Below, piece after piece: positions 20,620-54,497 of a stretch of 64,000 bases of DNA. Made by a program: the position numbers and the translations under genes. Every line of letters starts with the position of its first letter. The first letter of the stretch is position 1. The stretch is taken from positions 10,974,001-11,038,000 of the forward strand of contig OX597814.1 in the NCBI GenBank assembly GCA_951406725.2, in the 5' to 3' direction. The notes beneath the pieces are model-generated. The model saw nothing but the letters and a program-made list of their open reading frames with translations, did no database searches and was not told the origin of the DNA. This stretch comes from Octopus vulgaris (taxonomy: Eukaryota).

Positions 20620-21579
20620 GTCGCTGTCGTCATCATCAACTTCATCTCGTTATCAGTTTTGTTCATTCAAGCACCCTCATTTTCTCTCTCTCCCTCCGTC
20701 TCTCTCCATCTCTCTCTCTTTCTCTCTCTCTCTCACCAAGTAGTTCTACATCTTCATTTCTTTCAGTCAGTATCTTTTCTATTCTTTTTCTTTTCTACCT
20801 TTTCTATCACAATTTTCCTTCTCTTTCTCACTCTCTCATATCCATTCACCCATTTATTCATTCATTAAAGTTATTCTTTCTTTTGTCATTCACGCAATAC
20901 ATAACACTTCTATCGACTCACCCTCTTTGAACGAATCTCCTGTCGTCCTCCGTTTCTCTCTTCTCTTTCTTTCCCCACCCCTCTAACATTCTCTTTCCCT
21001 ACTCTCTCTCCTATGCCTCTCCCTATCCAAGCTCCCCCTTTGTCTTTCTTACCCTTTCTATCTCTCCCTTTCTCCGACATACACATACTTCATACACATA
21101 CGTAAATCCACACCCACTCACTCCCTTTCTTTCAGTCCCGATTTTCCCTACATCTATTTACCTATCTACCTTTTCCATCTCTCCTTAAATAATTATTCCT
21201 TCCTTAATTTATCTCTTTGTTTCAAGCAACCTTCTTTTCAGAAATTGCCATGTAAATGAAGACGCTAACTTACTGCGCATGCGCTGGCCTTATGGGAAAA
21301 AAATGTGGGAGTCAGCTCTCTGATGAATCTCTAAGAAGACAAGAAACTAGCCATATCGATTCTACTTTTCTGTCCACAGAGACATAAACATTTGTGCTGT
21401 GATTATAATTTACGTTAATTTTAACACCAAACTTGAAATTAGAAGTTTAATAAAAAGATATATCTAATCTCTAGATATCACTTTGTGGAACAAGATTAAT
21501 TGCAGAATAAATCCACTTTGGAAACTAGGCAAACTAGTTTAACAGAATCCATGTTTGTTTACACAATAAATAGCGAATG

Positions 21580-21657
21580 TCCGAAGGTGACACGCAGTGG
21601 AACTGAACCTGGAACCATCTGGGTGGGAAGCAAACTCCTTATCATAACCCACGCCTA
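21580..21657 (-). mobile_element. SINE family A, 5' head fragment
   Basis: CACGCAGTGGAACTGAACCTGGAACCAT matches the head at 13430-13460. Confidence 0.75.
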
Positions 21658-21797
21658 TATGTATGTATATATATATATGTATGTGTGTATATATATATTT
21701 CTTTATACGTACATATACATATGTATATTTCTTTATACGTGCATATACATATATATATTTCTTTTTAATCTAGTTTCAGCATATATATATACATATA

Positions 21798-21958
21798 TGT
21801 CCTTAGGACACAGAAAATGTGTCAAAGCCGACAGGAAGCGTTCAATGCTTCCTAGGGCTAAATAGCGGTGGTGTAATTCCCATACGGGACTGTCACGTTA
21901 AGTTGACAGTATACAACCACTCTATCGCTCCACCACCGCTCATGTCTCTTTGAGACAT
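21798..21958. other. Multi-hairpin structured element of unknown identity
   Basis: At least six perfect or near-perfect stems within 160 nt (see findings). Confidence 0.6.
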
Positions 21959-22395
21959 TTAGAAATTTTATATTTCTGATTATATATATTGTAAAAATAT
22001 ATTAATGTGAGGGTAATAAAATAATTATTCTATTCCTAAATTTTTTTATGACGACTGTAGAAAACGCACTCTAAGAAGGGTTACCTTTAATGAATTCCAG
22101 GTCCATATAACAGTTTAGAGAATGTCAAGTAAATGATTGAAAAACTTTACACAAGACTCAACCAAAAGCACATATACACATGCATACATATACACTTGCA
22201 CAAATTTACAGACAGACGGACAGAGGGAATAGTACGTAGATATATTTCTGTGTGCATATACATATGTGTATATAGCTATTTGGTCTTTAGATATGTCTAG
22301 TAGTATGTCGGTTTGGTGAATATACAAATGCATGCGTGTGTTTCTCTGAAATTCTCTATGTCTACATGTACGCATATTCATACAGATATATGTAT

Positions 22396-22427
<32 letters not shown>

Positions 22428-22907
22428 GTATATTCTTACGCATATATTGATTTATGCACATATATATATATATACATACATATACACACATATATATACA
22501 TATATACATACATATATGTATGAATATGCGTTTGTGTTAGTTTGAGTGTGTATATATTTACATATATACATATATACACACACATAAACACGAATACAAA
22601 TAGAGAGAGAGAGACGGGAGAGAGTGTTAGGTAGATAAAAAATAGATTGGTAGATAAATAGATAGATTGTTTGTAGATAATAAAAAGATGTTGATACAAA
22701 TATGTAAATATACATACACTCGCACTCACAAACACACTCACACATATATATATACATACATACACACATACATACATACACACATATATATATATATAAA
22801 CATAGATATAAATATATATACATATGTATATGCCCATTAAAAAGGTGAGGACAGGTGTCTAAACAACAAATAGGTGTATTAGTATAACGCTCGGGAAAGT
22901 GAGAAAG

Positions 22908-22945
22908 TCTTTTATGTTTCGAGCCTACGCTCTTCAACAGAGAGG
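22908..22945 (-). ncRNA. Second copy of the CUGUUGA hammerhead-like motif (mutated cleavage region)
   Basis: Minus strand: CCTCT-CTGTTGA-A-GAGC-GTAG-GCTC-GAAACATA-AAAGA. The flanking repeat (about 22836-23000) aligns with 32660-32810. Confidence 0.45.
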
Positions 22946-23229
22946 AACACGAGAAAATAAACAGAGGGAGAATAAAAAAATCGCTTTAGGGGCTAGCAGT
23001 GCACAATGTGTGCGCGAACGTGTATATATCGTCGTGGTTTTTTTTAATGGCTGTATAATACCGAGTGACATATATGAGTGAGCATATAAAAGACAATTGG
23101 TGTTGAGGTAAAGTATATACTTTTGGTCCGTGAATGCTTAATGGTGTCTTCACTCCTATATTTCATTATGCATCATATTGGCATTTGAAAAATTTCAGCT
23201 ATACACGCGCAGGCACATATACACGCACT

Positions 23230-53944: not shown

Positions 53945-54497
53945 CGTAAACATGTGAGGAAACTATAGCACAGGGTGACGTGTTTCCTAATCGCAAGTTG
54001 ATTGACTCCGAGGTCGAACCGACTAACGTCGGCGCTAACGACGCCGTCAACGACGGCAGCCGAGAATTCGGTGACAACGTTGGGGGTGGCGGCGTCGTCG
54101 TCGTCGCCGTGGGCAGCGGCGGCGATGACGTCGACGTTGTCAAGGGTCCCGGCGACGTCGGCGTCGTCGTCCGCGACGTCCGCGACGGCGGCGTCGTCGT
54201 CGTCGTCGTCGTCGTCGTTGGTATACCACAGTTGATGTTGTTGATGATGTTGATGGTGTTAGTGTTGTGGTGGTTGATGCTGTTACTATTGTCCTTCCGA
54301 TCGACGGGCATCTTGTCGCCGAGAATTGCGGCTATAGAGAAGGCCGAGGCCTTGTCTGATAACTGACTTTTGTCCGTGTGATGATGTGTCCGTGTGTTGA
54401 CCACCATACTGCTACATTTAATAACCTCCTTGACGGCCGGTATATTCTGGCCAATGACCCCACAATCCACCACGCTTCCATTACTGTTCTCTGTCAT
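53945..54497 (-). CDS. First coding exon of a probable T-box transcription factor (Tbx20-like, or Tbx15/18/22 group); N-terminal eh1 motif plus Asn/Thr/Pro low-complexity region
   Basis: Non-microsatellite ORF starting ACCATGA. It contains QLSDKASAFSIAAILG, resembling the vertebrate Tbx20 N-terminus (QLSSRANAFSIAALM) and Tbx18 (LSLKAHAFSVEALIG). It ends at a consensus donor ACG|GTAAGT (GT at 53944-53943) after 553 nt, phase 1. The region is GC/CpG-rich against an AT-rich background. No T-box domain is seen in the window, so the family call rests on the eh1 context only. Confidence 0.75.

Follow-up and report, generated by a model that had tools for sequence, protein, structure and literature searches.

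A densely folded element in the genome of Octopus vulgaris is, with good probability, a 5′-truncated retrozyme copy without its hammerhead, likely pasted into a TA repeat by the reverse transcriptase (RT)/endonuclease of a Penelope-like element (PLE), its fold likely being the domain at which its RNA was loaded and reverse transcription started. The element occupies positions 21805–21980 (+ strand) of the 64-kb stretch that we analyzed, hereafter called the window, which belongs to an assembly of 2.8 Gb. An earlier note on this DNA had listed the structured end of a mobile element among its suggestions, and this one proved apt: the element is the 3′-terminal half of a retrozyme-type repeat, and the fixed ends of the copies lie inside it. 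The copy in the window has lost its ribozyme and is without evident function. The retrozyme class is already known, and the family in octopus is a new member of it. In the literature, we found neither an octopus or cephalopod retrozyme nor an account of retrozyme insertion ends; the words "octopus" and "cephalopod" are absent from the main text of PMC7229834 (Cervera and de la Pena 2020), the supplement of which, like repeat libraries, may hold one.

The folded element in the window

The element corresponds to m1–m176 of a monomer that we call family A (m1 = 21805); at three positions it departs from the majority base of the compared copies, taken column by column. Its right limit is at 21980–21982, 22 nt beyond the end given in the earlier note. 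As that note had remarked, it is GC-balanced in AT-rich surroundings (GC content 0.47, versus 0.36 for 21001–22000). The + strand of 21790–21965 folded at −62.9 kcal/mol (z = −5.99), far more stable than its shuffled counterparts, none of which (0 of 200) was equally stable; the − strand of the same stretch gave a z of −5.16.

All of the stems listed in the note are real and lie where it had placed them. On the + strand, hairpin H1 (21807–21823) is followed by hairpin H2, which has an internal loop (21826–21859), and by helix H3 (21864–21940), which closes a junction. Inside H3, the fold prediction places two adjacent hairpins (21878–21889 and 21890–21909) and an AC-rich linker (21910–21930, +). 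Hairpin H4 (21942–21958, +), in which a G-C pair is replaced by A-U in 2 of 20 family copies, and the AT-rich hairpin H5 (21959–21982, +) complete the element. The predicted pairing probability of the main helices in the window copy was 0.95–0.98. Two positions at which copies of the family recurrently end also fall here: fixed end A (~m120; 21920–21926, +) is in the AC-rich linker, and fixed end B (~m176) is at H5. They are the putative first and second starts of reverse transcription, respectively, and H4 lies within the 56-nt tail.

The window copy stops at end B, where it adjoins a TA tract. TA-rich tracts are present on both sides (21780–21797 on the left and ~21981–21990 on the right) and may represent a microsatellite target; no target-site duplication was readable at the window copy, the flanks of which are TA-rich. 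At the 5′ truncation junction, 21798–21804 (−) is a 7-nt fold-back, the reverse complement of m354–m6, that is particular to this copy; other copies have the family sequence there. No second copy of the element was found within the 64-kb window.

The earlier note had also described two alternative pairings that would compete with these helices. Both exist as letters; in the window copy, however, their predicted probabilities were 0.03 (TGTCC/GGACA) and 0.00 (GTGGT/ACCAC), values that lend no support to a conformational switch. The TGTCC/GGACA alternative stems from the fold-back at 21798–21804 and is not a feature of the family. The second alternative was chosen over the 10-bp helix of H3 when RNAalifold was applied to 20 family copies. 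With Rfam 15, no family reached the gathering score within the window, and over the element there were two chance-level matches (E = 6.5 and 7.2).

Several other features of the window were recorded. A SINE-like repeat ending in a TA tract lies ~150 bp upstream of the element, at 21575–21660 (+), and also matches locus L026. At 21320–21350 (+), we observed a core like that of a hammerhead (CTGATGA...GAAAC), the stem II of which is weak; it resembles a motif beside a GIY-YIG locus in L214 and is probably the decayed end of another PLE-type repeat. A decayed minimal-hammerhead-like repeat, in which a GAGC/GCTC stem is followed by GAAAC, occupies 22840–22960 (−); sequences like it occur on the flanks of L002 and L025. 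Of 399 tiles of 160 nt across the window, the one with the most stable fold falls in a GC-rich (0.69), low-complexity region of GTC/GAC/GGC triplets at 54000–54330.

The repeat family and its hammerhead

A genome-wide search for copies, which the earlier note had recommended, returned 3,132 first-look candidates; among the 40 that were scored, there were 39 other full-length copies, 95–98% identical. The monomer is 354 bp long, noncoding, and arranged head to tail, its period having been read in locus L014. In the half that is missing from the window, and in the same orientation as the window element (+ sense), there is a type I hammerhead: CUGAUGA at m267 is followed by stem II (4 bp), GAAAC, a stem III that is short and palindromic, and GUC at m299–301, and stem I has 6 bp. 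The ribozyme of this family is thus an ordinary one situated in the half lost here; the novel ribozyme that the note had considered found no support, and no sign of catalysis emerged for the half kept in the window. We recognized the hammerhead by its motif and stems; Rfam listed no hammerhead model at E ≤ 0.5 in six loci. The core was intact in 32 of 36 units among those listed, many of them from loci picked for the hammerhead half. A search with the hammerhead half gave 703 candidates, compared with the 3,132 for the element, suggesting that most copies, like the one in the window, end before reaching the ribozyme.

L014 is a 1.8-mer of a young subfamily with two hammerhead cores 354 nt apart, the second ending in GUU; the window copy lacks such a pair. 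No young family A array of more than 1.8 units was present among the 40 scored candidates. An older subfamily forms a 4.1-unit array (L121:2928–4346), in which two units share a deletion in the hammerhead core and two are intact. Where an inserted arm is long, it passes from one monomer into the next with no other sequence between.

Folded as circles, two natural monomers had z scores of −8.1 and −8.4 in the sense orientation and of −6.3 and −6.4 in the antisense orientation (60 shuffles), and 64–67% of the circle was predicted to be paired. The prediction is a long rod with the hammerhead at its tip, together with a multibranch domain, the latter being the window element. In isolation, the family A hammerhead was predicted to adopt a noncatalytic fold ~3 kcal/mol more stable than the catalytic one; in the circle, the predicted probability of stem II was 0.95.

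Metazoan non-LTR retrozymes consist of 150–450-bp tandem units with a type I hammerhead, a GC content under 50%, and no LTR features; their predicted circles are highly self-paired, and mussel units measure 350–390 bp (PMC7229834). The octopus family likewise has a type I hammerhead in head-to-tail units of 150–450 bp, is noncoding, has a GC content under 50%, and is predicted to form a highly self-paired circle. Judged by its sequence, it is of the non-LTR retrozyme kind. It differs from the retrozymes reported in PMC7229834 in that its copies are mostly dispersed, truncated, and often two-armed, rather than forming long arrays, and in having a multibranch domain that looks conserved and 3′ ends fixed at two positions, features that do not appear in the portions of that paper available to us. 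In addition, cleavage and circles were demonstrated there, whereas the octopus family is known from sequence alone.

In vertebrates, retrozymes, which are non-autonomous hammerhead repeats, occur as monomers, dimers, and multimers, most families having no more than seven units, and have been argued to come from the pLTRs of PLEs (Li, Clavereau, Pollet 2026, bioRxiv 10.64898/2026.07.22.740005). Only one of nine Xenopus dimers was cleaved in vitro (bioRxiv 10.64898/2026.07.22.740005), so the hammerhead activity of the octopus family cannot be assumed. In the text of that survey that we had at hand, no mollusc is among the named species.

The fold in sister families

Other related families turned up in the fetched loci: family C, with a 362-nt unit (2,734 candidates), and family D, with a 359-nt unit (2,622 candidates), each of which has its own hammerhead. 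A further family, E, is represented by locus L168, and a related copy is in L206. Arrays of 2–4 pure monomers exist in A/B, C, and D. The fixed ends of family C lie 178 and 237 nt after the hammerhead cut, leaving a tail of 59 nt; the corresponding distances for ends A and B of family A are 173 and 229 nt.

When C and D were folded separately, the helix order was the same as in A (H1; H2 with its internal loop; a closing helix, two adjacent hairpins, and a linker), and the topology of H3 was predicted for each of them. H4 appeared in the consensus of D and in single-sequence folds of C. No equivalent of the alternative H3 pairing was predicted for C or D. H1 is present in both families with one-sided changes only; H2 has two-sided changes between families, its inner stem being GGAAG/CUUCC in A, AGAGG/CCUCU in C, and GGAGA/UCUCC in one D copy.

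A covariance model built from A/B alone found C (best E = 6e-10), D (2e-7), and E (2e-9). By rough E-values, structure improved on sequence alone for C (6e-10 versus 7e-6) and for E (2e-9 versus 5e-5); for D, it brought no gain over sequence. Because a MAFFT alignment of A/B with C was 1–2 columns out of register in two helices, we counted pairs instead on an HMM alignment, which uses sequence only and is blind to structure. Across 15 sister rows (59–70% identity), 2–9 pairs per row were kept through two-sided changes and 2–11 were broken. Ten of these rows kept more pairs than a random-substitution null (p < 0.05) and five missed that threshold; the 15 rows represent three families only, and rows within a family are not independent. 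Within A/B, 96% of cells were paired and a two-sided change was seen in 4 of 44 pairs (4 of 500 shuffles), so that covariation inside this group looks thin. The earlier note had asked whether copies would break the stems without compensation: the helices are kept in the sister families, with the loss of individual pairs given above.

Taken together, these comparisons lend moderate support to a fold that looks conserved across sister families, and at least four diverged families appear to share the folded domain. To that extent, the structured noncoding RNA proposed in the note was a fitting description. A role as a further, undescribed ribozyme or as an RNA switch is very unlikely for this stretch. 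Persistence of the fold over ~40% sequence divergence would suit such a function, as would the preference of RNAalifold for the alternative H3 pairing in A/B; yet the alternatives reach at most 0.03 in single sequences and have no predicted equivalent in C or D, no Rfam ribozyme matched, and the family already has its hammerhead.

Insertion ends and a possible partner enzyme

To describe how copies end, we mapped 103 arms at 70 distinct sites. The loci were selected by similarity and length, 30 of them by their match to a B-ended query, so counts of ends and lengths are biased and do not amount to a census. The 3′ ends lay at m168–180 (B) in 52 of the 103 arms and at m114–126 (A) in 41, with 10 elsewhere; A and B, 56 nt apart and both inside the domain of the window element, thus account for 93 arm ends. 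The 5′ ends, by contrast, were scattered around the monomer. Thirty-nine arms were longer than one monomer, a number subject to the same selection bias. Many arm ends adjoin TA or TC repeats. In L011:977–1782, L087:1359–2875, and L168, members of different retrozyme families were seen side by side, sharing a TA-rich site.

A single arm was present at 38 of the 70 sites, and two pieces, nearly all of them inverted arms, at 31. Among 30 divergent two-armed insertions, 25 paired A with B, one paired A with A, none paired B with B, and four had another end; hence, where both ends could be classed (26 pairs), 25 were A+B. Inverted arms and insertion in TA could also suggest a DNA transposon, either a MITE or a fold-back element, whose terminal inverted repeats are long. 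We regard this as scarcely credible and largely refuted, because the outer ends are unequal by 56 nt, so that matching terminal inverted repeats are absent; moreover, more than half of the sites are one-armed, the inner junctions of two-armed insertions are scattered, and the units are tandem and carry a hammerhead.

No pile-up of 5′ ends was seen at the hammerhead cut: 3 of the 103 lay within 6 nt of it, about as expected from an even spread. From this, and from the arms longer than one monomer, we infer that the template was uncut there, being either a circle or a multimer. Per 100 sites, the rare variants shared numbered 0.36 for the paired arms of an insertion (28 pairs) and 0.69 for two rounds within an arm (23 pairs), which is 6-fold and 12-fold, respectively, the level between insertions (0.06; 4,437 pairs). 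This sharing fits a single template per insertion, as it also fits subfamily membership or gene conversion.

These features resemble those left by PLEs. The insertion marks of PLEs include partial tandems, an inverted 5′-truncated copy, a 30–40-bp tail, and a bias toward microsatellites (Craig et al. 2021, PMC8557442). In vitro, a PLE cuts AT-rich DNA on each strand; RT starts internally at two sites in an AC-rich stem loop, and the sequence separating these sites forms the tail (Frangieh et al. 2024, PMC11167929). The marks found in the octopus insertions are 5′ truncation, an inverted 5′ copy, a fixed-end tail, and a microsatellite target. With EN+ PLEs, as far as these sources describe them, octopus copies share 5′ truncation, partial tandems, the inverted 5′ copy, and AT-rich or microsatellite targets, as well as a hammerhead in the repeat and a tail between two RT start sites, one of them in an AC-rich stem loop. 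They differ in having no ORF, in the length of the tail (56 nt, or 59 nt in C, versus 30–40), and in RT starts located 173 and 229 nt past the cut. PLEs have been proposed as the mobilizing partner of metazoan retrozymes (PMC7229834), and, in what we could consult of PMC7229834 and bioRxiv 10.64898/2026.07.22.740005, re-entry of animal retrozymes into the genome is proposed, not demonstrated. The vertebrate survey, in the portions available, links retrozymes to PLEs through co-occurrence and pLTR homology; the octopus link comes from insertion ends, and no pLTR homologue was found in the 46 distinct GIY-YIG loci searched.

By analogy with known retrozymes, a multimer transcript would cut itself at each hammerhead, and the resulting 354-nt monomer would close into a circle. 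A PLE protein might then bind the folded domain of the monomer RNA, nick AT-rich (TA)n DNA on both strands, and start cDNA at the internal sites A and B, as the PLE studied in vitro suggests. Synthesis would continue round the template until the enzyme falls off, giving premature stops. The window copy would be one arm, begun at B and stopped after 176 nt; as it stopped before the hammerhead, it could not itself release a monomer. A more far-reaching proposal, to which we give somewhat less than an even chance, is that the multibranch fold of 160 nt serves at least four diverged retrozyme families as a domain for loading and initiation, conserved in structure, which would recruit the PLE in trans and set two internal starts on a small circular RNA, one per strand of the cut TA repeat. 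If so, retrozyme mobilization would have its missing cis element, and PLE-mediated insertion of RNA cargo could gain a portable tag. The PLE tail signature and the conserved fold offer a concrete RNA substrate and start sites for an in vitro PLE assay.

A linear multimer could instead have been the template, with A and B being RNA 3′ ends produced by processing or termination and the fold serving processing or stability. Arrays of up to ~4 units exist, uncleaved RNA was the dominant substrate in vitro (PMC11167929), and the best U2-promoter-like site falls just past end B in four of six monomers, outside the window copy, which would fit snRNA-type transcription. This promoter motif was not significant in A/B, however: with a U2 upstream matrix built from seven distinct motifs (17 of 20 U2 loci), p was 0.61 for A and 0.32–0.88 for three B monomers, compared with 0.053 for C and 0.013 for D. 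The A+B pairing in 25 of 26 insertions better suits one complex with two starts than two RNA species, and young family A arrays stayed within 1.8 units among the scored candidates. We consider a linear template decidedly improbable. The U2 genes themselves (L222–L241) are numerous and nearly identical, their upstream regions fall into several distinct types, and an ATCAGT-centered motif lay 57–61 nt upstream in 17 of 20 loci. Assembled contigs of four runs (three guessed to be RNA), carrying at most four organism labels, cover much of the monomer and are blind to strand, level, ends, and circles; their joints going back ~350 are as expected from tandem DNA.

We searched for the partner enzyme that PLE-mediated insertion of a retrozyme RNA would call for. 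PLE-type ORFs are numerous in this genome. There were 6,136 GIY-YIG candidates; 150 of them were scored, yielding 148 matches, 16 of which lie in a 781-aa open frame. One ORF of the genome carries RT and GIY-YIG domains with a cysteine-rich linker, a feature that points to Neptune or Nematis by the criterion of PMC8557442. No RT/GIY-YIG ORF was found within or attached to any mapped arm. Likewise, blastn, nhmmer, and the covariance model placed the domain at the end of a PLE in none of 46 distinct loci, drawn from 30 GIY-YIG loci (~3.2 kb each) and 20 longer stretches (7.2 kb each); the clear domain hits in L109 and L206 are separate insertions, that in L206 lying ~600 bp past the PLE end.

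This search bears on whether an autonomous PLE left the copies behind as stumps of its pseudo-LTR, with no independent small RNA cycle. All of the insertion marks are PLE marks; in Xenopus, 24 of 57 retrozyme families are homologous to annotated elements, of which 21 of 22 are PLEs with the similarity at their termini (bioRxiv 10.64898/2026.07.22.740005); and the scored loci are only 150 of the 6,136 candidates. Against this, long arms run into the next monomer rather than into an ORF, pure monomer arrays occur in A/B, C, and D, and the 46 loci contained no PLE end with the domain. We therefore judge a pseudo-LTR origin improbable and favor a retrozyme RNA inserted by a PLE.

Members of the young 781-aa PLE family (L097, L102, L217, and L218) have a long 3′ UTR of repeated CCAAT/TGACGT-like blocks. 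At its 3′ end, ~70 nt from the terminus, this family has a minimal hammerhead variant with a TTGATAA core; the octopus retrozyme family, in contrast to this minimal form, has full stems I and II. L206:820–3985 is a two-armed PLE insertion with an inverted copy of its own 3′ end, and its open frame of 574 aa is 46% identical to the 781-aa family.
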